Of a DNA stretch of 64,000 bases, positions 2,898 through 48,179 are shown in pieces (position 1 is the stretch's first letter; each line of letters begins with the position of its first letter). Made by a program: the position numbers and the translations under genes. The DNA is from a virus. Its lineage: Duplodnaviria > Heunggongvirae > Uroviricota > Caudoviricetes. Location of the stretch: the IMG/VR virus record IMGVR_UViG_2718218168_000001, positions 34,217 through 98,216 of that record; one strand, written 5' to 3'. The notes under the pieces are model-generated. The model did not search any database, had not been told where the DNA came from, and saw only the letters and a program-made list of their open reading frames with translations.

Positions 2898-3077
2898 TTA
2901 TCTGCTGCCCGGCATTCTCTGTTTAAGCACAACCATTTCCTGACGGCATAACACAGCAATAGCGGTCCTGACTCCAATTTGCTTACCAACCAGGTATTGC
3001 TTTACCTTGCGGCGACTCACGCCATCAAGAAGCATCTTTAACGCTTCACGGGACAATTTGTTGTATTTGCGTGCCAT
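2898..3077 (-). CDS. small basic protein, possible DNA-binding
   Basis: about 59 aa from an internal Met (MARKYNKLSREALKMLL...); short and basic. Confidence 0.3.
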   Translation of the reverse strand: MARKYNKLSREALKMLLDGVSRRKVKQYLVGKQIGVRTAIAVLCRQEMVVLKQRMPGSR

Positions 3078-3081
3078 TAAT

Positions 3082-3462
3082 CTACTCCGCAGAACCATAC
3101 AATCTACGTAACGTGGCGGCGACAGAAGATACAGATATCTCGCCAGTCGCAGCCCCTACGGTAAGGTCTGCCAGTTCAGGTGAATCAAATACCTGCACCC
3201 CGTTACGGCGTAGAAATAACAGCGCACTGTTTAGCGCGGTACGCTTATTGGCATCATTGAATATATGCCCTCTCGCCGTAGCCACCAGGTAGGTGGCGGA
3301 GACTTCGAAAAGGTCGGTGATCTCTTCGTAGGCAACTCTGGCCTGAACTCTCCCGATAATGGCCTCTGCCCTACCCGGATCTGACATTCCCGGCAGGCCG
3401 CCGTAGCGGTTTATATTCGCATCATGAAGCGCAATAAGTTCTTCCGGTGATATATGCCTCAT
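3082..3462 (-). CDS. doc: Doc toxin (death on curing; Fic-fold kinase)
   Basis: 126 aa; sequence matches P1 Doc as recalled ([17 protein letters not shown]...[19 protein letters not shown]). Confidence 0.93.
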
Positions 3463-3683
3463 TATCGGTTAACCAGTTCCTTGTTGGTGGAGTCCAGGGT
3501 GTCAAACAGGGATGCAAATTCAGCATCCAGCGCCGCTTTTTTGTAGGTTTCAAAAGTAGCCTTGCTGACAATTACTGCTGGCTCACGGCCTCTGCGGGTG
3601 ATTTCAACCTCTTCCCCTGCTTCAACATTATTGAGCACTTCGCTAAGGTTGCCGCGCGCGGTACGGAAGTTAATGGATTGCAT
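3462..3683 (-). CDS. phd: Phd antitoxin
   Basis: about 73 aa from [45 protein letters not shown]...; its stop overlaps the doc start. Confidence 0.9.
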
Positions 3684-3827
3684 AAACACCTCGTGTACTC
3701 GTTATGTGTACACAATTATAAACTTCACAAGCATAAAGCACCAGCACTTTGCAGCTTAAATCACCGGACAATCGTCAAACTCCCCACTTCGGGCATCATT
3801 GATGAAATGATGTGGTCACACCAAACT

Positions 3828-4292
3828 TTAATCTTCAAGGTCTGCTTCTGATACCACTGTATAACCCAGAAATATTTTAATCTCATCCCACAATCCCATG
3901 ATCTTGCCTTCATACTCTGATGGTTCTCTTACAATTACTGAATCTGGGGGAGAGTGAGCCTCTAATTCAGTTATGATCTCATGGCAAAGATTATGTTTGT
4001 AATATTGTTTTAGTTTCTCTCGAATAGGTTTTGGCGCACTTTCAATAGTTTCTTTTGCGGCATTTAGTGAAAGAATTATATTACTTGCGTCATTAACATC
4101 CCAGTCTGATCCAGCTTTTCCTGTTGCTATTTTATTTGCCCTATCAGCAAAGTTTATCAATGCTTCACTATAAAATTTTTCCTTATCGAATAATCCAAGA
4201 TTTTTACTTGTGCGCAAACTAATAAAAGCAGCTATTGCTGACCCAAATGCCGCAATAGCTGATGCCCAATCGGGATTGATATGAAGAAACAT
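3828..4292 (-). CDS. hypothetical membrane-anchored protein (AT-rich cargo)
   Basis: 154 aa; N-terminal hydrophobic helix (WASAIAAFGSAIAAFISL); locally AT-rich. Confidence 0.5.
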   Translation of the reverse strand: MFLHINPDWASAIAAFGSAIAAFISLRTSKNLGLFDKEKFYSEALINFADRANKIATGKAGSDWDVNDASNIILSLNAAKETIESAPKPIREKLKQYYKHNLCHEIITELEAHSPPDSVIVREPSEYEGKIMGLWDEIKIFLGYTVVSEADLED

Positions 4293-24406: not shown

Positions 24407-25071
24407 ACTTGCCGGGTACGTCTCCGGCGAGGGCTTCCACCTCCGTATGCTTTTCGGCGCACCGCGCCCTGGCTGCAATTCGGTAACAGGGGATGCACAA
24501 CCCTGGCTTCCAGCGTGATTAGCGCCTTCAGCATGACGGGATATACCCGTAAATTCGTGGAACTGTACCCAAAGTGCTGTTAAGCACCGCTGTTACGCTG
24601 AAAAGAAAACGCAACAGGAAAGGACGCTGACCAACAGATGGCCCCTTCTCGTTCATCTGGTTAATCACACCAGCGCCCTTACCTGTTGTGCCTCCCCGTT
24701 CCCTAATACACAGACGGGGACACTCTGCGGTCGATTTTTTGACGGGGGACGACTCATACCCCGTGGCATCTGGCTTCTTAGGCCGCTACCATCATCAGAT
24801 CATCGTTTGCATTTACTTTAATGGCCAGTTTCTAAACCGCCGCAAAGTCGCTAACCATGACGAAAACCCTGAAAAAAACGCCCACCCGAAGATGGGCAAA
24901 CTGGAAGCTCGTAACGCACTTCGGCGTTGCCACTTAGGCGCATGGTCAACCTGGCAACTCGGTGGTTTGTCTGGGAGGACTAGGCCCAGCCATGCTTACC
25001 GCCGCGCCTGTCGCGGCTAACAGCTAAATCGCTCTATAAATCACGATTCATTGAGGTGATATTACACTAAT

Positions 25072-25088
25072 AAATTTATTAGAGCAAT
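25072..25088. promoter_or_regulatory. C1 operator, 17/17 to AAATTTATTAGAGCAAT
   Basis: perfect match overlapping the dmt stop codon, upstream of the tRNA-ban operon. Confidence 0.6.
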
Positions 25089-41560: not shown

Positions 41561-42070
41561 ATGGGGCACAATAACACTAAGGGAAACCGTAAATTTATTA
41601 AGGGCCGCTATACTGCCAACGCGGCCAAAGGCGAACGACTGGTATCTTCTGAATTCCAGCTCACTTTTGCAGGCCATGAAGATATCAGCGTACTGGTTCG
41701 CACGTCGCAAATTCCTGAAATGACCCGCGAGGATGTGGAGGACTATGGTCCGAATGGTGTGAAGTTCAACCAGCACGGTCCAATCCGTAACTCCGGGGAA
41801 ATCCAGGTCCAGTGCGTGGAGACTATCGAAGGCGATATTCTTCAGTTCATTAAAGATCGCATTGCGGCGAAGGACTATGTTGATATCACGATGGCTGCGA
41901 CCCCTGAATCCAAATCTTCCGGGGTTAACGCTGTGACAAAAGCTGCTACAACAATTGAAATGTTGGACTGCAAAATCTACAGTGATGCAATCGACTTTAG
42001 TACCGAAGATGTGACTGCCGCTGTGCGTCCGTCACTTCGTATCGTTTACAACTGGATTGAGTGGGATTAA
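41561..42070 (+). CDS. putative tail tube or tail protein
   Basis: 169 aa, followed by a terminator hairpin. Confidence 0.45.
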   Translation: MGHNNTKGNRKFIKGRYTANAAKGERLVSSEFQLTFAGHEDISVLVRTSQIPEMTREDVEDYGPNGVKFNQHGPIRNSGEIQVQCVETIEGDILQFIKDRIAAKDYVDITMAATPESKSSGVNAVTKAATTIEMLDCKIYSDAIDFSTEDVTAAVRPSLRIVYNWIEWD

Positions 42071-42153
42071 GAGTCACCCCTTGTATTTTAAAGCTCCTAC
42101 GGGAGCTTTTTTGTGCTTAAATTATGCCGGTATAGCGAAATTTTGAGCATATT

Positions 42154-42450
42154 ATGGAAATTGATTTTTCATACTCTCCTGAAACGATAGAACGAAGATT
42201 CGAAATAATTGGATGCAAAACTATTTCAGAGGAGCATTATTGGATTCTCTATGATGCCAATACATGGTTATGTGCCTTAGCAGAATGTCGGCCATCGTTA
42301 TGTGCAGGGGAGGGAGGACTTCGACATAAGGTGCTGGCTACACTTGAAGTGAACACGTTACGATATTGGTGTGTCGAAATACTTAGGGATAACAAAGAAT
42401 TACATTTATTATTGCTGAATAAGTGTGCGCCTCTGCGCAGGAAAGCATAA
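42154..42450 (+). CDS. hypothetical small Cys-containing protein (AT-rich cargo)
   Basis: 98 aa; AT-rich; convergent with the DUF3800-like operon. Confidence 0.4.
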   Translation: MEIDFSYSPETIERRFEIIGCKTISEEHYWILYDANTWLCALAECRPSLCAGEGGLRHKVLATLEVNTLRYWCVEILRDNKELHLLLLNKCAPLRRKA

Positions 42451-42578
42451 GAAAACCCAACCGCCATACTGGAATTATCAGAAGAATATGTGCGGAAAGT
42501 TATAGCTAGCTATTGAAAAGCTAAAGTAGATCGGTTAGATTTACCTTACTCATCTACCATGCGTAGAAAGAGCGATCG

Positions 42579-42618
42579 AACCCGATACATAGCAATATGT
42601 GTCGGGTTCAGCTTTTTT
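42579..42618. terminator. bidirectional intrinsic terminator
   Basis: aacccgatacatagcaatatgtgtcgggtt then cagctttttt. Confidence 0.5.
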
Positions 42619-43096
42619 ATGTCCCAAGTGCTCTTTTTCTGCTTTGTTTGAGTGTTCTGATTTTACTGTCATAGGTTACAACATAGGCTGTTTTGAGAAG
42701 CCAATAGTCTCTACGTGCGGATAGCACAACAACGTAGTTTTCACACTCGTTCCAGATTACCCACTCTTCAGTTGGTCCTCGTCTTTCAGACCAACATGAT
42801 ATATCGCAATGGTCATAATTCCTTATCATATGCGCGATCCAGCGGATCCGCTTACACCGTTCAAGATCAGGTATTCGTTCTTCTTCTATTTTTCCCTCTG
42901 ATACTAAATGCCAAAATCCGAACTCTTTCCCATCATATTCCGGTGAATAACGTAATCGAACAGGGAGACCCTTAAACGTTATATTAGAGATTAAAATATC
43001 TTCTCTAACAACATCATATACATCGTCTATATACTCTTGCCAACTTCCATTGAAGTACAATAAATCTGGCATTTGAAGCATCAGCGAGCCTCCCAC
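42617..43096 (-). CDS. hypothetical protein, partner of the DUF3800-like gene
   Basis: about 155-159 aa; start overlaps the stop of the upstream gene; AT-rich. Confidence 0.5.
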   Translation of the reverse strand: MGGSLMLQMPDLLYFNGSWQEYIDDVYDVVREDILISNITFKGLPVRLRYSPEYDGKEFGFWHLVSEGKIEEERIPDLERCKRIRWIAHMIRNYDHCDISCWSERRGPTEEWVIWNECENYVVVLSARRDYWLLKTAYVVTYDSKIRTLKQSRKRALGT

Positions 43097-43785
43097 ACGA
43101 AAATATTAAATTTACTTTCTGTTGGAAGAGTGCTTTTTAGTAACTCCCTGTTTGTATGTGATTTTATCCTGTTTATGACTTGGATTTTTCCCGCGTTGCT
43201 ATTCATTCCTCGATGAACGTAGCCTAACGCACCAATGAAAAGATCCGTTAGCTGCAATTGTTGCACTTCATGAGATCGTATATGTTGAATTCTGTTTATC
43301 GACTCATGATTGTAATCATAGCGATCATTGTGAAGAACTCCTCTTAATTTCTCAATTTTTTCAATACCTAAAGTATCTTTTATATCTAGGTAGATATTGT
43401 ATGTGTTGTTACTTTCTATTATGTTTTTTAAGACATAAAAAAACATCTTATAATAGAAAGTATTGTGATCTTGATGGAATCGAGCATGGTCCAGTTGCTC
43501 TTTATCAGGAACAACAACACCTCTAAAGCGCAATGCTGGGTTGCTGAAGAAGTAATCTACGACCTCTAAGTAAAATTCAACTTTGGACGCAGATACTTTA
43601 GTCCACTTGATTTCGAAATCAGGTTTTAAATTGTGTTTTAATTTTAATCCCTTGATGTCTCTAGCAATTTTTTTTGTGATAGTGCCAGGACACCAAAGCG
43701 CACCCAATACCATGACTTTATTATGATCATTTAGTAGGTGACAGGATTCATCGCAGAATACATTAAATGTTCTTCGGTTCAACAT
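43081..43785 (-). CDS. DUF3800-like protein
   Basis: 234 aa; N-terminal FNVFCDESCH resembles the DUF3800 signature; very AT-rich. Confidence 0.5.
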   Translation of the reverse strand: MLNRRTFNVFCDESCHLLNDHNKVMVLGALWCPGTITKKIARDIKGLKLKHNLKPDFEIKWTKVSASKVEFYLEVVDYFFSNPALRFRGVVVPDKEQLDHARFHQDHNTFYYKMFFYVLKNIIESNNTYNIYLDIKDTLGIEKIEKLRGVLHNDRYDYNHESINRIQHIRSHEVQQLQLTDLFIGALGYVHRGMNSNAGKIQVINRIKSHTNRELLKSTLPTESKFNIFVWEAR

Positions 43786-43953
43786 GTTAACTCCACTTAT
43801 TGTTAGGTAGAATTGTCCGTTAGTTGTTTATTAATTGCAATAATGGGACGTTCTGATTTGCTAACTACGTCATCTTACCAGGACGCCTATGAGTTTTCCT
43901 CATGGCAAACTAGAGGTGTTGAAAGTATGCATGGTTATAATTAGAGCAATCTA

Positions 43954-44799
43954 TCACCCTCTGAATCCTACCGGTATACCCCATTGTTCGTTATCTTTAT
44001 TTTTGGCTAATACCGCATTAAGTGCTTCGTTTACCGTCATGCAATGCGGTAGATTATCGAAGTTTGATATCCAGCCAATATCAGGAGAACGCTTGTTCTT
44101 CAGGTAAGCATATTTCCGCGCTGCCGCCTCTACTTTCTGCTTGAACTCATGTTTTTGAGCGCGTTTTTTGGATAACCGCAGATTGTCAGCCTTTGCTTTT
44201 GCCTCAGCGATCCATGAAGTCAGTTTTTTGAGGCTGGTCGTTCCGGTACCGCCGGAAACTGATCTTTTTGTTTTTTTAATTTGTGACTTCTTATTCTTTA
44301 TTGCCACGTCATCCTGACAGGGGGAGGGGGTATCATTTTGACATGGGGGTGTGGATAAAAAATTAAATAAAGCCAATGTCTTAGCGAGAACAGCTTTAAC
44401 CTTGGTTGCCGCTGAAGAGATCTTTAATTTGCTTTCAATCAGCGCATTTTTGGCTTGTTGTGCGAAGGCCAAAAAGGATGGTGTAAACCGGTACAGGTTA
44501 GCGCGACGTTCACGGTGATCGCCGATAACAATCTCTACAGACAGAATTCCTTTGTTTACAGCTTCACGGAATGCACGAACGACGGTTGATTGGCTATAAC
44601 CAGTTTCTGCCGCGATCAGGCGGTGAGGCTTGTGAATGAAGTATTCACTGGTTGTTGCCGCGAGATTTGCACATTGCGACAGGATATGCCCGGCGCTACG
44701 GGATAGACCGGAGTGTGTTACAAAGCAGGCCAATTCATAGCCAGAAAAAGTAAAATCGCTCATCGTTATACAGCTCAGGAAAGTGACTTTAGCCAGCAT
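43954..44799 (-). CDS. repL: lytic replication protein RepL
   Basis: 281 aa; downstream of the kilA-like gene under a C1 operator, as in the P1 lytic replicon. Confidence 0.75.
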   Translation of the reverse strand: MLAKVTFLSCITMSDFTFSGYELACFVTHSGLSRSAGHILSQCANLAATTSEYFIHKPHRLIAAETGYSQSTVVRAFREAVNKGILSVEIVIGDHRERRANLYRFTPSFLAFAQQAKNALIESKLKISSAATKVKAVLAKTLALFNFLSTPPCQNDTPSPCQDDVAIKNKKSQIKKTKRSVSGGTGTTSLKKLTSWIAEAKAKADNLRLSKKRAQKHEFKQKVEAAARKYAYLKNKRSPDIGWISNFDNLPHCMTVNEALNAVLAKNKDNEQWGIPVGFRG

Positions 44800-44828: not shown

Positions 44829-45629
44829 TTAGCGCGTTGCCGCGACAGGTACCAGCACACCAGCATCAAGCAATCGCTTCATCAGCCACTGCTGACCTTT
44901 GCCGGTTATACGAGTCGTGAAAGAAATCCTGCTTCCATTGCTTGTATCGATCACGGTTTCTTTAAGGGTGAAATACCCACGGGATATGTATTCTTGTTTG
45001 GGGACGTTCCTGCGTTCACCGGTTGCGATCAGAATTCCGTTATCACGCAACCAGGTGAAGAGATAGTTTTGGCCCAGGCCGAGCACTTTGGCATAGTTGC
45101 CGATTAGAACCCCGCTGGCGGTAGCAACGCGTTCGGCGAATTCGACTTTAGGTGCATCCATCAGCATTTTTTGCTCCAGCCGTTGCTTTTGCTCTGCCAG
45201 GTCAGCAGCCAAACGGAGAGCTTCTGGGAGGCTCTTCGGAATAGCAGGTTGTAATCTTCCGGCTCGATAGTCGATAAATGTCTGGTTTACCTTCAGCCGA
45301 AACGCGGGAGAAATCCAGCCTGCGTACTCCACTGCGAGCAATTCATGGGCAAAAGTGCCGCCGCCACGGCCTTCGAACGAAACTATGCAATTCTGCATAG
45401 TTTCTTTTTCAAGCTCTTCGATGAGCTGTTTGGCTGACAGCGTTCTTAGCCATTGAGCTGGCGCTTTATGGGCACCGAGTCCGCTCGCTCTGTGTAGAGC
45501 ATTAAGGTTGTAACGGCCAGCGCGGTCGGTCGTAATTTCAACACCACAAATAACAGGCAGAGTGGTTGAAGGATCGACATTTTGATGAAGGTTTGATATA
45601 TTCATATCCGCATTGAATGTTTGTTGCAT
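44829..45629 (-). CDS. kilA: KilA-N domain / antirepressor-C domain protein
   Basis: 266 aa; C-terminal AntB-like region shared with the upstream ant gene; C1 operator just upstream. Confidence 0.65.
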   Translation of the reverse strand: MQQTFNADMNISNLHQNVDPSTTLPVICGVEITTDRAGRYNLNALHRASGLGAHKAPAQWLRTLSAKQLIEELEKETMQNCIVSFEGRGGGTFAHELLAVEYAGWISPAFRLKVNQTFIDYRAGRLQPAIPKSLPEALRLAADLAEQKQRLEQKMLMDAPKVEFAERVATASGVLIGNYAKVLGLGQNYLFTWLRDNGILIATGERRNVPKQEYISRGYFTLKETVIDTSNGSRISFTTRITGKGQQWLMKRLLDAGVLVPVAATR

Positions 45630-45793: not shown

Positions 45794-46828
45794 TTAACCT
45801 ATTGCTACTGGTTTTAACAAACCAGCATCAAGTAGCTTGCGAGTTAACCACTGCTGGCCTTTACCCGTTAATTGGGGCGTCAGCCGTATCTGGTAGCCAT
45901 TTTCATCATCCAGCACCACTTCTTTCACCGTGAAATACCCGGCGTTGATGTACTGTTGGCGCGGTACGTTTTTGCGCGCACCAAAAGCCATGAGAATGCC
46001 GTTCTGGCGCAACCATGAGAAAAGGGTGTTTTGCTTAAGTCCAACGACCTTTGCAAAGTTCCCGATCAGGATTCCATTGGCCACTGATACCCGGTCGGCA
46101 AAATCGACTTTAGGGGCTGCGGCCACCAGCTGTTGTTCCAACTGCATTTTCTGTTCTGCTAACTCGGCAGCCAGGCGTAGGGCTTCTGGTAATGTCTGGG
46201 GGATCGATGGGGTAGGGGAGTTTGCCTGCTGTAATTCTTCCAGTTTGTCGATCAGCGAACGGCGGACCGCTTTTGACTCGCGCGCGGCAACTCGCAGGGC
46301 TTGTTTGTAGGTCATTGTTATAATATCTATTTCTGCGCCGTTTTTTTGACCTACGAAAATTTCGTAGGTTTCTCCTTCAAGTTCATCCTTAACTCTGGCA
46401 ATGAAATCATTATTGCGAACTGGTTTTTCGCTACATAATTTCCGTGCCTCATTGACCATCTTCAACAATGTTTGGCTGTCGATTGTGTCTCCGATGTTGG
46501 GGATGACATTCACGGCTGGTGTTGGCGTAGCTGACGTAACAGGTGCTGGTTTTTCAATATTCAAATTTTTACCGGTCACTCTGTGTGCCTCCTTTCTCAT
46601 TTCTGCTACCACTGTTGCGTAACGTAGACGTCCTTGTTCAATCAAATAATCCCTGATCTCGGCTATCAGTAGCTTGTTGATCACAGCCTTATCTGTTCGG
46701 GTATAAAAACGTCTGGTTATCATGAAATAGTTGGCAATTGCGCCGGGGATCTCCCGTGTCGGCATACAGGTTGTATGCAGGGCGATCGCTTCGGCTATTT
46801 CATTACGGGTGACGAGAGGTTTTTTCAT
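45794..46828 (-). CDS. ant1: antirepressor Ant
   Basis: ORF track 45794..47038; probable start at MKKPLVTRNE inside the icd 3' end; C-terminal half paralogous to KilA. Confidence 0.55.
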   Translation of the reverse strand: MKKPLVTRNEIAEAIALHTTCMPTREIPGAIANYFMITRRFYTRTDKAVINKLLIAEIRDYLIEQGRLRYATVVAEMRKEAHRVTGKNLNIEKPAPVTSATPTPAVNVIPNIGDTIDSQTLLKMVNEARKLCSEKPVRNNDFIARVKDELEGETYEIFVGQKNGAEIDIITMTYKQALRVAARESKAVRRSLIDKLEELQQANSPTPSIPQTLPEALRLAAELAEQKMQLEQQLVAAAPKVDFADRVSVANGILIGNFAKVVGLKQNTLFSWLRQNGILMAFGARKNVPRQQYINAGYFTVKEVVLDDENGYQIRLTPQLTGKGQQWLTRKLLDAGLLKPVAIG

Positions 46829-47045
46829 AAATCCCCTGAACGTCGGCAGAGAAGGGGAGGTTCCAGTAACTAAGTGAATTGCGCGAGTTAGTTGAAAAAC
46901 GGGCAGTAAAAATGCAGGGGCCATCAGGCAATTGAGAGCGTGCTTCGTCTTCTGTTGCTGCGATGACGAAGTGATAGTGGTGTTTTTTACAGGAATAGAA
47001 ACGCCAGATGAATTCTTGGTGTGCGCAAGGATTGGCATTAACCAT
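46803..47045 (-). CDS. icd: Icd-like small protein
   Basis: 80-aa ORF whose 3' end overlaps the ant start, the arrangement described for P1 immI; sequence not verified. Confidence 0.4.
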   Translation of the reverse strand: MVNANPCAHQEFIWRFYSCKKHHYHFVIAATEDEARSQLPDGPCIFTARFSTNSRNSLSYWNLPFSADVQGIYEKTSRHP

Positions 47046-47359
47046 AGTTACGGCCTCACAATCAGGTTTAACAACCTGCTACCCGCTGCTAAACAGGTGG
47101 CAGGACGTGACGGGGTTAGCAGACTGGCGATTGTGAAACCAGCAGGCCGAAGCCTCCCCATCACGCCCCACCATAATTTGGGCGTAACGCGGTTTTACGG
47201 ACACAAAAATACCGCAATATCGGATATCTGCGGCTGTCCGCACAATCATTCAGGCTGCTAAACCCGGTCGCAGAATTTGCTACGACGGCGAAACTATAAG
47301 CCTGAACGATTAAAAGGTCAATATGATGCGAAAAGATAGCATTCACGACTTAAAAATAC

Positions 47360-47376
47360 AAATTTATTAGAGCAGA
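47360..47376. promoter_or_regulatory. C1 operator-like 17-mer (15/17) upstream of the c4-icd-ant-like operon
   Basis: aaatttattagagcaga. Confidence 0.55.
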
Positions 47377-47657
47377 TGAGTGTCGTGCAATAGAAGTATT
47401 ATTTGTGATGAAAAATAATGCAGAGGGATATTGTTACTTTAAGATGGATATCAATAGTCGATACATAAATTAAGTTAGCAATAAACTATTAACTTAAGAA
47501 ATAATGCAGATGGTGAACTTGTCTCTGACTTTTCAGCTATACACAATAAGTTAGGGGTTGCTTATAAAAAGTTGATTAATTGATATAAGTCAATGGGAGT
47601 ATTCTTGTTTACTTTCCGTTCTCGTGGTAACTTCTCGCCGGTTTTTGTTTTTCTTGG

Positions 47658-48179
47658 ATGATTCTTATGTCTAAAAAGTATACTTTATGCGCTCTTGTTG
47701 TATCTGCAATTCTTCTTTCTGGGTGTCAATCTAGCGGTGCTGATTATGCTGCCGATGTTTATGATACCGCTCAATTGAATTCGAAGCAGGAAACAAAGAC
47801 AGTCAATATTATCTCTGTGCTTCCAGCTAAAGTGAAAGTTGATAATAAAGCTAATAAAGAAGCGGCACAGACATTTGGTGCGGTACTGGGAGCTGTTGCT
47901 GGGGGCGTTGCCGGTTATAATGTTAAAGGCACATCGACACTGGGTGCTGTAGCTGGCGGTACTGGTGGTGCGGCTCTTGGTGCAGCGGCTGGTTCTTTGG
48001 TTAGTGATAAAACAATTGTTGAAGGTGTTTCACTGACTTATAAAGAAGGAACTAAGGTGTTCACTTCAACTCAAGTTGGTAAAGCATGCCAGTTTACAAC
48101 GGGGCTTGCTGTGCTTATTTCAACTAAAGATAATGAAACTCGAATTCAGCCAAATGCTACTTGTCCAGAAAAGAAATAA
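47658..48179 (+). CDS. lipoprotein with glycine-zipper region
   Basis: 173 aa; signal peptide plus lipobox LLSGC; GAVLGAVAGGVAGY... glycine zipper; AT-rich. Confidence 0.6.
   Translation: MILMSKKYTLCALVVSAILLSGCQSSGADYAADVYDTAQLNSKQETKTVNIISVLPAKVKVDNKANKEAAQTFGAVLGAVAGGVAGYNVKGTSTLGAVAGGTGGAALGAAAGSLVSDKTIVEGVSLTYKEGTKVFTSTQVGKACQFTTGLAVLISTKDNETRIQPNATCPEKK

Follow-up and report, generated by a model that had tools for sequence, protein, structure and literature searches.

The AT-rich block that lies directly 3' of repL in the window (the whole stretch of viral DNA analysed here, 64,000 nucleotides in length) raises the question of what its genes are and what they do for their carrier. An earlier note on this DNA had offered two readings, horizontally acquired cargo, possibly an anti-phage or exclusion system, or divergent homologues of the rlfA/rlfB genes that P1 carries at this position; we found that both are true together and are not alternatives, and that the word "divergent" does not apply. 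The window represents a P1-like phage-plasmid, which over positions 41900-44000 shares 99.9% identity with phage JL22 and 96.6% with P1 (96.6-97.5% with the P1/P7 locus). All of the open reading frames that had been proposed for the region were recovered (Table 1), and the gene order of P1, kilA-repL-(C1 operator)-rlfA-rlfB-pmgF-bplB, is kept, with the same operator and promoter sequences. In gapless alignment with P1, DNA identity is 98.4% for rlfA, 97.6% for rlfB and 94.9% for pmgF, the most diverged gene of a locus that otherwise shows practically no difference; RlfA and RlfB each carry 2 amino acid changes and PmgF carries 6. By these matches and the shared synteny, the genes are near-identical orthologues of P1 rlfA/rlfB (rapA/rapB in P7), and the codon changes relative to P1, 9 synonymous and 2 non-synonymous in rlfA and again in rlfB (8 and 6, respectively, in pmgF), indicate that rlfA and rlfB are under purifying selection. 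That the open reading frames are chance artefacts of AT-rich DNA is ruled out by their homologues, this selection and confident structure models. The object is therefore one already known, and long uncharacterised, in P1; the two genes were reportedly named "replication-linked" in 2004 from their position alone. Annotation pipelines still label RlfB "replication protein" or "oxidoreductase".

Table 1. Features of the rlfAB block and its surroundings (positions of the window)
Feature	Position	Strand	Remarks
AT-rich cargo cassette (pmgF, rlfB, rlfA, promoter region)	42113-43939		1,827 bp; identical breakpoints in relatives
pmgF	42154-42450	plus	98-aa orphan gene; P1 annotation
14-bp hairpin	42578-42609		directly 3' of rlfB stop
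rlfB (P7 name rapB)	42617-43081	minus	154 aa; no Pfam family; PADLOC family PDC-M04B
TGATG junction	43079-43083	minus	rlfA stop and rlfB start share one base
rlfA (P7 name rapA)	43081-43785	minus	234 aa; Pfam DUF3800; PADLOC family PDC-M04A
Shine-Dalgarno GTGGAG of rlfA	43791-43796		
PrlfA, predicted weak sigma-70 promoter (TTGCAA, 17-nt spacer, GACAAT)	43812-43840	minus	transferred from P1 annotation
C1 repressor operator Orlf (former Op55), ATTGCTCTAATTATAAC	43934-43950	minus	P1 annotation
repL	43954-44799	minus	directly upstream of block

RlfA has the N-terminal sequence MLNRRTFNVFCDESCH, and for rlfB the mechanical open reading frame starts from a GTG at 43096 (159 aa), the P1 annotation using the ATG at 43081. 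With the latter start the two genes overlap by 1 nt, and this stop/start overlap makes translational coupling plausible, as had been proposed for two minus-strand genes of 234 and about 155 aa; the overlap is conserved in relatives. The convergent small gene noticed beside them is P1 pmgF. The bidirectional terminator that had been placed next to these genes is only half supported: on the plus strand, which is that of the pmgF transcript, the hairpin is a canonical intrinsic terminator with the stem followed by U6, whereas on the minus strand the stem is followed merely by GAUCGCUCUUUC, making a weak terminator. Over its full 166 nt the spacer has an unusual degree of structure (z = -6.1 for the plus strand and -4.0 for the minus). 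Upstream, Orlf lies 3 nt beyond the repL stop and has the same sequence here as in P1; its 11-nt core (43940-43950), present in 5 copies in the window where 0.08 would be expected, is part of the backbone, and the operator's last 6 nt fall within the cassette. PrlfA scores under the threshold in a consensus promoter scan. A preprint on P1vir infection describes an altered induction of rlfA/rlfB in an hfq mutant, and, given the C1 operator upstream, expression may therefore belong to the lytic phase rather than the lysogenic state, which would be atypical for a prophage-borne defence.

The composition and distribution of the block bear out its acquisition as cargo. GC content is about 38% in the cassette and 37.7% in the bplB-repL interval that contains it (42071-43953), against 47.2% in the window, with a minimum of 33% (300 nt) within rlfA, so that the contrast with the backbone noted earlier holds. 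The cassette ends at the T-run of the bplB terminator on one side and at the C1 operator core on the other, and three relatives with other cargo have breakpoints identical to these. What replaces the block in other P1-like phages is Hok/Gef, unknown ORFs, or an ORF together with an IS605-family transposase gene. The synteny shared with P1 is not general among relatives, since rlfAB was found in 120 complete E. coli genomes against 687 that have the bplB backbone, so that about 17% of the P1-like backbones in these genomes carry the block. The cassette corresponds to the published "variable region 5" of P1-like phage-plasmids (PMC9603915). When its alternative cargo was scanned against PADLOC and Pfam, Hok/Gef alone was recognised, and therefore the slot cannot, on present evidence, be called a defence hotspot. 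We conclude that P1-like phage-plasmids have a fixed slot for cargo and that the block is one accessory cassette occupying it, mobile by horizontal transfer, with a two-gene conflict module, rlfA-rlfB (PADLOC candidate PDC-M04), as its core; taken jointly with the mechanism proposed below, we judge this somewhat better than an even chance.

The two genes travel as a unit. An rlfB homologue directly follows the rlfA homologue in 79 of 80 loci, drawn from more than 15 phyla, and in the one remaining locus the DNA ends about 430 nt past the A gene, which leaves no room for a complete B gene. The pair is always adjacent and co-oriented and usually overlaps at stop and start; for the majority of the 79 loci, B has a possible start codon that overlaps the A stop or is at most a few bases away from it (ATGA, TGATG and TAATG types). 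It is present across many phyla and in several unrelated temperate phages, among them the Bifidobacterium prophage Bbif-1. PmgF does not share this distribution: its homologues fall into two protein clusters only, both at least 90% identical to the query, and none occurs in any of the 80 loci, on which grounds we rejected PmgF as a third component. The gene, which is non-essential in P1 (CRISPRi study), belongs to the swappable cassette and not to the conserved two-gene module.

The surroundings of the pair suggest what kind of module it is. When the four nearest genes are considered, type I restriction-modification (R-M) genes, always on the strand of the pair, are present in 36 of the 80 loci, and in 22 of the 42 loci that have 4 kb or more of flanking DNA to either side; the Pfam domains counted among the neighbours include ResIII (30), Methylase_S (24), HSDR_N (19) and N6_Mtase (14), and the order hsdM-hsdS-A-B-hsdR is found in two loci (L075 and L070). 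Other neighbours are AbiEii-type ATPases, KwaB, other methyltransferases and integrases. The PrrC anticodon nuclease sits in the EcoprrI locus in the order hsdM-hsdS-prrC-hsdR, and many RlfAB homologues hold this same slot, between hsdS and hsdR and on the same strand, an analogy that suggests an R-M-linked back-up RNase. Unlike PrrC, which is a single protein, RlfAB consists of two proteins of different folds and lacks the ABC-ATPase and anticodon nuclease domains (Pfam finds DUF3800 in RlfA only and nothing in RlfB). Both component HMMs of PADLOC PDC-M04 are matched in the window by adjacent genes on one strand (RlfA to PDC-M04A, 2.2e-95; RlfB to PDC-M04B, 1.1e-51). The adjacent, co-oriented genes and the type I R-M embedding of PDC-M04 (Payne et al., bioRxiv 10.1101/2024.01.29.577857) were likewise found independently here; unlike the typical case, the copy in the window is carried by a phage-plasmid and lies outside any R-M system, with repL and pmgF as its neighbours. 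The PDCs are untested candidates that were picked out because they lie embedded in BREX, DISARM or type I R-M systems ("guilt-by-embedding"). Literature searches for PDC-M04, rlfA/rlfB and DUF3800 returned no functional study and no paper mentioning PDC-M04, and the papers searched describe no rlfAB phenotype other than non-essentiality.

Since the pair often lies within R-M operons, rlfAB is more likely a candidate anti-phage or toxin-like module than a set of replication genes, and we regard a function in defence, for which the PADLOC matches and the R-M embedding are indirect support, as plausible. The older idea would have RlfA act as an RNase H that processes a transcript or R-loop at oriL, within repL, and thereby primes or regulates P1 lytic replication, with RlfB as an accessory subunit. 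It draws on the position of rlfAB directly downstream of repL/oriL, with the C1 operator between, on the RNase H2-like fold predicted for RlfA, and on the P1vir preprint, in which rlfA/rlfB are grouped with repL among the replication genes. However, CRISPRi knock-down of rlfA or rlfB leaves P1 plaquing unaffected, about 83% of P1-like backbones keep repL without the rlfAB genes, and homologous pairs occur in R-M operons and in chromosomes without repL, all of which makes a replication function very improbable. The CRISPRi result places both genes among the non-essential ones; the module is not required for P1 lytic growth and probably benefits the lysogen, or the phage when it competes with other mobile elements.

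RlfA, which has more than 5,000 homologues, is the far more conserved partner, with at least 50% identity across phyla. The DUF3800-like signature suspected at its N-terminus corresponds to a match to Pfam DUF3800 (PF12686; E = 7.6e-14, 53.1 bits against a cut-off of 21) that spans profile positions 1-148 of 149. As the DE and QxxD motifs of DUF3800 are defined (PMC7736814), they are represented by D12-E13 at the N-terminus and Q178-L-T-D181 in the C-terminal part; D12, E13 and D181 are invariant among RlfA homologues and Q178 is at least 90% conserved. The model of RlfA has a predicted RNase H-like fold, of type 2 (RNase HII/H2), in which the invariant acidic residues, D12-E13 on strand 1, D134 just past the strand 127-133 and D181 in the helix 175-191, would be placed roughly where the RNase H carboxylates sit. 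In the predicted fold RlfA resembles RNase HII and RNase H2A, and it may do so in these four acidic residues (strand 1, the end of a later strand, a helix); it differs from them in having no detectable sequence similarity, in an extra conserved Cys/His cluster (C11, C15, H16, C32) around the DE motif, and in its obligate partner gene. A search of the RlfA profile against PDB sequences gave no RNase H and no structure-determined relative, and hhalign against E. coli RnhB (RNase HII) gave a probability of 0.2%, that is, no signal, and therefore the catalytic residues of RlfA cannot be mapped by sequence. An NCBIfam search matched none of RlfA, RlfB and PmgF.

DUF3800 domains recur beside retron type VII and, as TPR-DUF3800 proteins, at Cas12a2/Cas12a3 loci, and an RNase H-like fold has been proposed for them. 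These proteins share with RlfA the Pfam domain and a defence context; unlike theirs, the surroundings of rlfA are free of any reverse transcriptase, msr/msd, CRISPR array or TPR domain, the Q-x-x-D motif that the retron-linked DUF3800 clade is without (PMC7736814) is retained in RlfA, and the RlfB partner is specific to the RlfA subfamily. Rfam searches found no retron RNA and no DUF3800-I to -XI motif in the window between 41000 and 46000 (E up to 5), and no retron RNA or DUF3800-associated RNA motif (Weinberg et al. 2017) at gathering scores in 8 homologous loci. The recurrence of DUF3800 beside systems that use RNA:DNA hybrids or guides (retron type VII, Cas12a2/a3), together with the C1 operator upstream of rlfA, could also be read as the mark of an offensive or counter-defence nuclease, which in P1 lytic growth, once freed from C1 control, would degrade nucleic acids of the host or of competitors, e.g., the RNA:DNA hybrids of retron msDNA or Argonaute guides. 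Most members of the family, however, are chromosomal and lie within host R-M operons, a signature of host defence and not of anti-defence, and we consider such a role in lytic growth quite unlikely.

RlfB is the more variable protein, with one invariant His and three conserved Arg. Its predicted fold weakly resembles that of the RelE/colicin D-type RNases, and with the RelE/ParE-colicin D (BECR-fold) RNase toxins it shares conserved His and Arg residues; it differs from them in carrying an extra N-terminal segment, and rlfAB differs from their systems in being without a small DNA-binding antitoxin. Foldseek of the RlfB model against the PDB gave no significant match, the RlfB profile matched no PDB sequence and so no structure-determined relative, and Pfam searches with 24 RlfB homologues (E up to 10) gave noise only and no family. 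If RlfB were nonetheless a RelE/colicin D-like RNase toxin, the pair could be a toxin-antitoxin or addiction module, in which the coupled upstream RlfA neutralises the toxin or reverses its damage and the carrier, be it the P1 plasmid prophage or an R-M operon, is stabilised by post-segregational killing and not by anti-phage action. The arrangement of a larger upstream gene overlapping a small one whose product has a RelE-like fold recalls type II toxin-antitoxin operons, the same slot holds a Hok/Gef toxin in other P1-like phages, and P1 is a low-copy plasmid prophage. RlfA, on the other hand, with its far greater conservation, looks like an active enzyme and not like a labile antitoxin, and the RelE-like fold of RlfB is itself weakly supported; moreover, both the 44 of 80 loci without detected R-M neighbours and the embedding in R-M operons are just as typical of defence genes. 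An addiction function thus seems to us unlikely, if less so than the roles in replication or lytic growth. Toxin-antitoxin and abortive-infection functions are not mutually exclusive.

The mechanism that we propose for rlfAB as a conflict module can be set out in several steps: (i) RlfA and RlfB would be made in a fixed ratio and act as a complex; (ii) RlfA would be the effector, a metal-dependent nuclease of RNase HII/H2 fold acting on RNA:DNA hybrids or structured RNA, with RlfB as a sensor or regulator or as a second RNase; (iii) the nuclease would be released when another phage infects the cell or when a partnered R-M system is inactivated; (iv) the released nuclease would block phage replication or kill the cell, as in abortive infection or in the way of a toxin. 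A bolder version of the same idea, which we put forward as speculative and rather doubtful, is that RlfAB is an R-M-linked immune effector of a new type, whose enzymology is also new: a DUF3800 nuclease of RNase H2 fold restrained or targeted by a RelE-like partner. Upon sensing that a phage attacks or that R-M is inactivated, it would halt replication by cleaving either a specific RNA or RNA:DNA hybrids such as primers and R-loops; P1 would have taken up the module into a slot under C1 control and would use it against competing phages or plasmids.

To conclude, P1-like phage-plasmids have a cargo slot with exact boundaries at the bplB-repL junction, and the rlfAB genes found in it are swappable cargo that belongs to a gene pair of very wide distribution and tight coupling, which typically lies inside R-M operons and includes an uncharacterised RNase H-like domain, DUF3800, that recurs in immune contexts. 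P1 is among the most tractable genetic systems, and its copy therefore offers a convenient entry to the function of the DUF3800 module. If RlfAB were indeed a new R-M-linked immune effector, this would be the first function for DUF3800, a domain found also with retrons, at Cas12a2/a3 loci and beside eleven orphan RNA motifs.

The window is a P1-like phage-plasmid. Positions 41900-44000 share 99.9% DNA identity with Escherichia phage JL22, 97.5% with P7 and 96.6% with P1, and the two minus-strand genes and the convergent 98-aa gene between bplB and repL, which were found as the earlier note had described them, are rlfA, rlfB and pmgF of P1 (see the table). The product of the first gene has the N-terminal sequence MLNRRTFNVFCDESCH and, in line with the DUF3800-like signature noticed before, scores 53 bits with Pfam DUF3800 (cut-off 21 bits; E = 7.6e-14). 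The rlfA stop codon and the rlfB ATG overlap by one base (TGATG), and an alternative GTG start would give an RlfB of 159 aa. The AT-rich character of the block was confirmed, the bplB-repL interval, which nearly coincides with it, having a GC content of 37.7% (minimum 33%, inside rlfA) against 47.2% for the window. The suggestion of divergent P1 homologues held for the orthology, which is complete, and failed for the divergence: RlfA and RlfB each differ from P1 at two residues (nine synonymous and two non-synonymous codon changes per gene), and PmgF at six. Likewise, the terminator proposed as bidirectional is a hairpin that is canonical on the plus strand only. The pmgF-rlfB spacer around it contains several further hairpins and is unusually structured relative to shuffled controls (z = -6.1 and -4.0 for the two strands); it has no Rfam match and could encode a small RNA or carry stacked terminators.

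Features of the rlfA-rlfB locus and of its surroundings (window positions)
Feature	Position	Strand	Remarks
bplB terminator	42090-42112		T-run ends at 42112
pmgF	42154-42450	convergent	98 aa; P1 name
pmgF-rlfB spacer	42451-42616		166 nt
Hairpin	42578-42609	plus	canonical terminator on this strand only
rlfB (P7: rapB)	42617-43081	minus	154 aa from ATG at 43081, P1 annotation
rlfA (P7: rapA)	43081-43785	minus	234 aa; DUF3800
C1 operator Orlf (former Op55)	43934-43950		11-nt core at 43940-43950
kilA	44829-45629
ant1-like gene	45794-47038		414 aa
Second AT-rich block	47300-47750		GC 0.31-0.34; C1-operator-like site at 47360-47376
C1-consensus-like sites	1809, 9235, 11328, 11377, 15001, 25061, 25072, 29617, 45699, 47360		pairs at 11328-11393 (close) and 25061-25088 (overlapping, divergent)

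The borders of the cassette were defined by comparison with three P1-like phages that carry other content between bplB and repL (MH422554, vB_EcoM-673R5 and RCS47). In all three, homology to the window stops at exactly 42112, where the bplB terminator completes its T-run, and resumes at exactly 43940, inside the annotated operator Orlf. The right breakpoint thus falls exactly after the 11-nt operator core ATTGCTCTAAT, which belongs to the backbone and whose five occurrences in the window compare with a chance expectation of 0.08, so that the last 6 nt of the operator change with the cargo. A C1-binding core thus lies upstream of any cargo in this slot, with possible consequences for cargo regulation or exchange. 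The idea of acquired cargo is therefore supported, the cassette being replaced in these three relatives rather than kept in conserved synteny throughout; of 5,426 complete genomes of E. coli, 687 have the bplB backbone but only 120 have rlfAB (~17% of the 687). The replacement of rlfA-rlfB-pmgF has been described previously in comparisons of P1-like phage-plasmids, which list these genes as a 'variable region 5' of low GC content (PMC9603915, PMC6906374). The alternative contents include a Hok/Gef toxin and unrecognised ORFs, with an additional annotated IS605-family transposase gene in RCS47. Such a toxin in the same slot, together with the gene order and a weak RelE-like fold, would fit a toxin-antitoxin or addiction module, which we consider an unlikely identity for rlfA-rlfB.

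A scan of the window with the 17-nt C1 operator consensus, allowing up to three mismatches, returned ten sites against 0.3 expected; Orlf agrees with the consensus only in the 11-nt core. The second sharply AT-rich block presumably corresponds to the immunity/sim region, which is likewise among the published variable regions of such elements. The neighbouring genes kilA and ant1-like have one domain in common, and the C-terminal ~130 residues of their products are clearly homologous (LPEALRLAA[D/E]LAEQK ... GKGQQWL ... LLDAG).

The pair is already known to PADLOC as the phage defence candidate PDC-M04, with RlfA matching PDC-M04A (2.2e-95) and RlfB matching PDC-M04B (1.1e-51); PDC systems are 145 candidates that were picked out because their genes lie inside BREX, DISARM or type I restriction-modification (R-M) systems (Payne et al., bioRxiv 10.1101/2024.01.29.577857). 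The earlier interpretation is thus partly supported, because the genes are P1 rlfA/rlfB and also mobile candidate-defence cargo. Homologues of RlfA number more than 5,000, many of them from distant phyla and still at least 50% identical to it. An independent context scan with one genome per species yielded 564 confirmed loci, the best 80 of which (Bacteroidota, Nitrospirota, Chloroflexota, Cyanobacteria, Acidobacteriota, Bacillota, Actinomycetota and other phyla) were kept. An RlfB homologue lies directly downstream of the A gene (the rlfA homologue) on the same strand in 79 of these 80, mostly with a candidate start overlapping or a few bases from the A stop (ATGA, TGATG and TAATG junctions); the exception has only ~430 nt of DNA 3' of the A gene, too short for a complete B gene. 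Type I R-M genes, all co-oriented, were among the four nearest genes in 36 of the 80 loci and in 22 of the 42 that are flanked by 4 kb or more at either end, fractions that are approximate because neighbours were called by a crude longest-ORF procedure and the loci chosen were those most similar to the query. Neighbouring Pfam domains in the 80 loci were Methylase_S (24), N6_Mtase (14), HsdM_N (13), HSDR_N (19) and ResIII (30), alongside AbiEii-type ATPases, KwaB, other methyltransferases and integrases. In one locus hsdR is upstream of hsdS-A-B, and in two others the order is hsdM-hsdS-A-B-hsdR. The slot between hsdS and hsdR is, in EcoprrI, the home of the anticodon nuclease PrrC, and the A-B pair occupies this same slot in the latter two.

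The unrelated Bifidobacterium prophage Bbif-1 (GQ141189) has an unannotated RlfB homologue at ~3693-4211 (hmmsearch E = 1.9e-37), starting about where the gene annotated as 'RlfA phagic protein' stops; an actinobacterial temperate phage therefore also carries the pair. PmgF had no homologue in the 80 loci, and just two protein clusters matched it, each at least 90% identical to the query. Separately, the 34.5-kb Escherichia phage Chuche (PP925824) has a distant stand-alone DUF3800 gene (2971-3777; 24% identity to RlfA) ~600 bp downstream of the portal gene, with no detectable RlfB partner, and similar genes occur in Mannheimia phages of ~34.5 kb.

In RlfA (confident structure model, pLDDT 89.6), D12-E13, D134/D137 and D181 are invariant among 28 homologues (52-87% identity), and conservation reaches at least 90% at Q178 and at C15, H16 and C32 around the DE motif. 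The model puts the acidic residues on strand 1, just past strand 127-133 and in helix 175-191, positions that are compatible with carboxylates of the RNase H type. Neither a profile search of PDB sequences nor hhalign against E. coli RNase HII found any resemblance to RNase H at the sequence level; DUF3800 has been independently described by others as RNase H-like and is associated with retron type VII, Cas12a2/a3 loci and eleven orphan RNA motifs, none of which (Rfam) is present at 41-46 kb of the window or in eight homologous loci. That RlfA is a true accessory RNase H of lytic replication is improbable, given that (i) rlfA, rlfB and pmgF were non-essential for P1 plaquing in a genome-wide CRISPRi screen (PMC10695390), (ii) ~83% of P1-like backbones are without rlfAB, and (iii) the homologues have an R-M context.

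RlfB (confident model, pLDDT 92.5) is much less conserved than RlfA, PADLOC having two A models while the window RlfB alone matches 12 B models. Neither the window protein nor 24 homologues matched a Pfam family; its family comprises ~1,790 clusters at 50% identity, the best 150 of which consist almost entirely of stand-alone proteins with ~150-190 aa. In 66 diverse members H58 never varies, and conservation is at least 90% at F56, W57, R69, R75, C76, R78, W81 and W97, a pattern compatible with a nucleic-acid-binding or RNase site. The names 'oxidoreductase' (NCBI/RefSeq records) and 'replication protein' (PHROGs, RefSeq P1 record) find no support in RlfB sequence or structure and so look like propagated annotation errors.

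Taken together, the facts suggest a two-protein conflict module: the genes form an obligate, translationally coupled pair that has spread widely by horizontal transfer, is often embedded on the same strand in R-M operons, is accessory in P1 and is under purifying selection. We slightly favor a role in defence or conflict; we are much less confident of its specific chemistry. RlfA would be a nuclease effector, and RlfB either its sensor or regulator or a second RNase, the two acting by abortive infection or in a toxin-like manner, possibly as a back-up to R-M like PrrC. That the nuclease is instead offensive or serves counter-defence has, in our estimate, little probability. Among the points against the defence reading, (i) a C1 operator is upstream of rlfA in P1, and (ii) in a preprint on P1vir infection, the induction of rlfA/rlfB, grouped with repL, was altered in an hfq mutant. 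The genes may therefore be expressed in the lytic phase instead of in the lysogen.

The match would surprise no one running PADLOC on P1. P1 offers an easy test bed for the function of DUF3800 modules; literature searches found no paper naming PDC-M04, nor any functional study on rlfA/rlfB or on a DUF3800 protein that stands alone.
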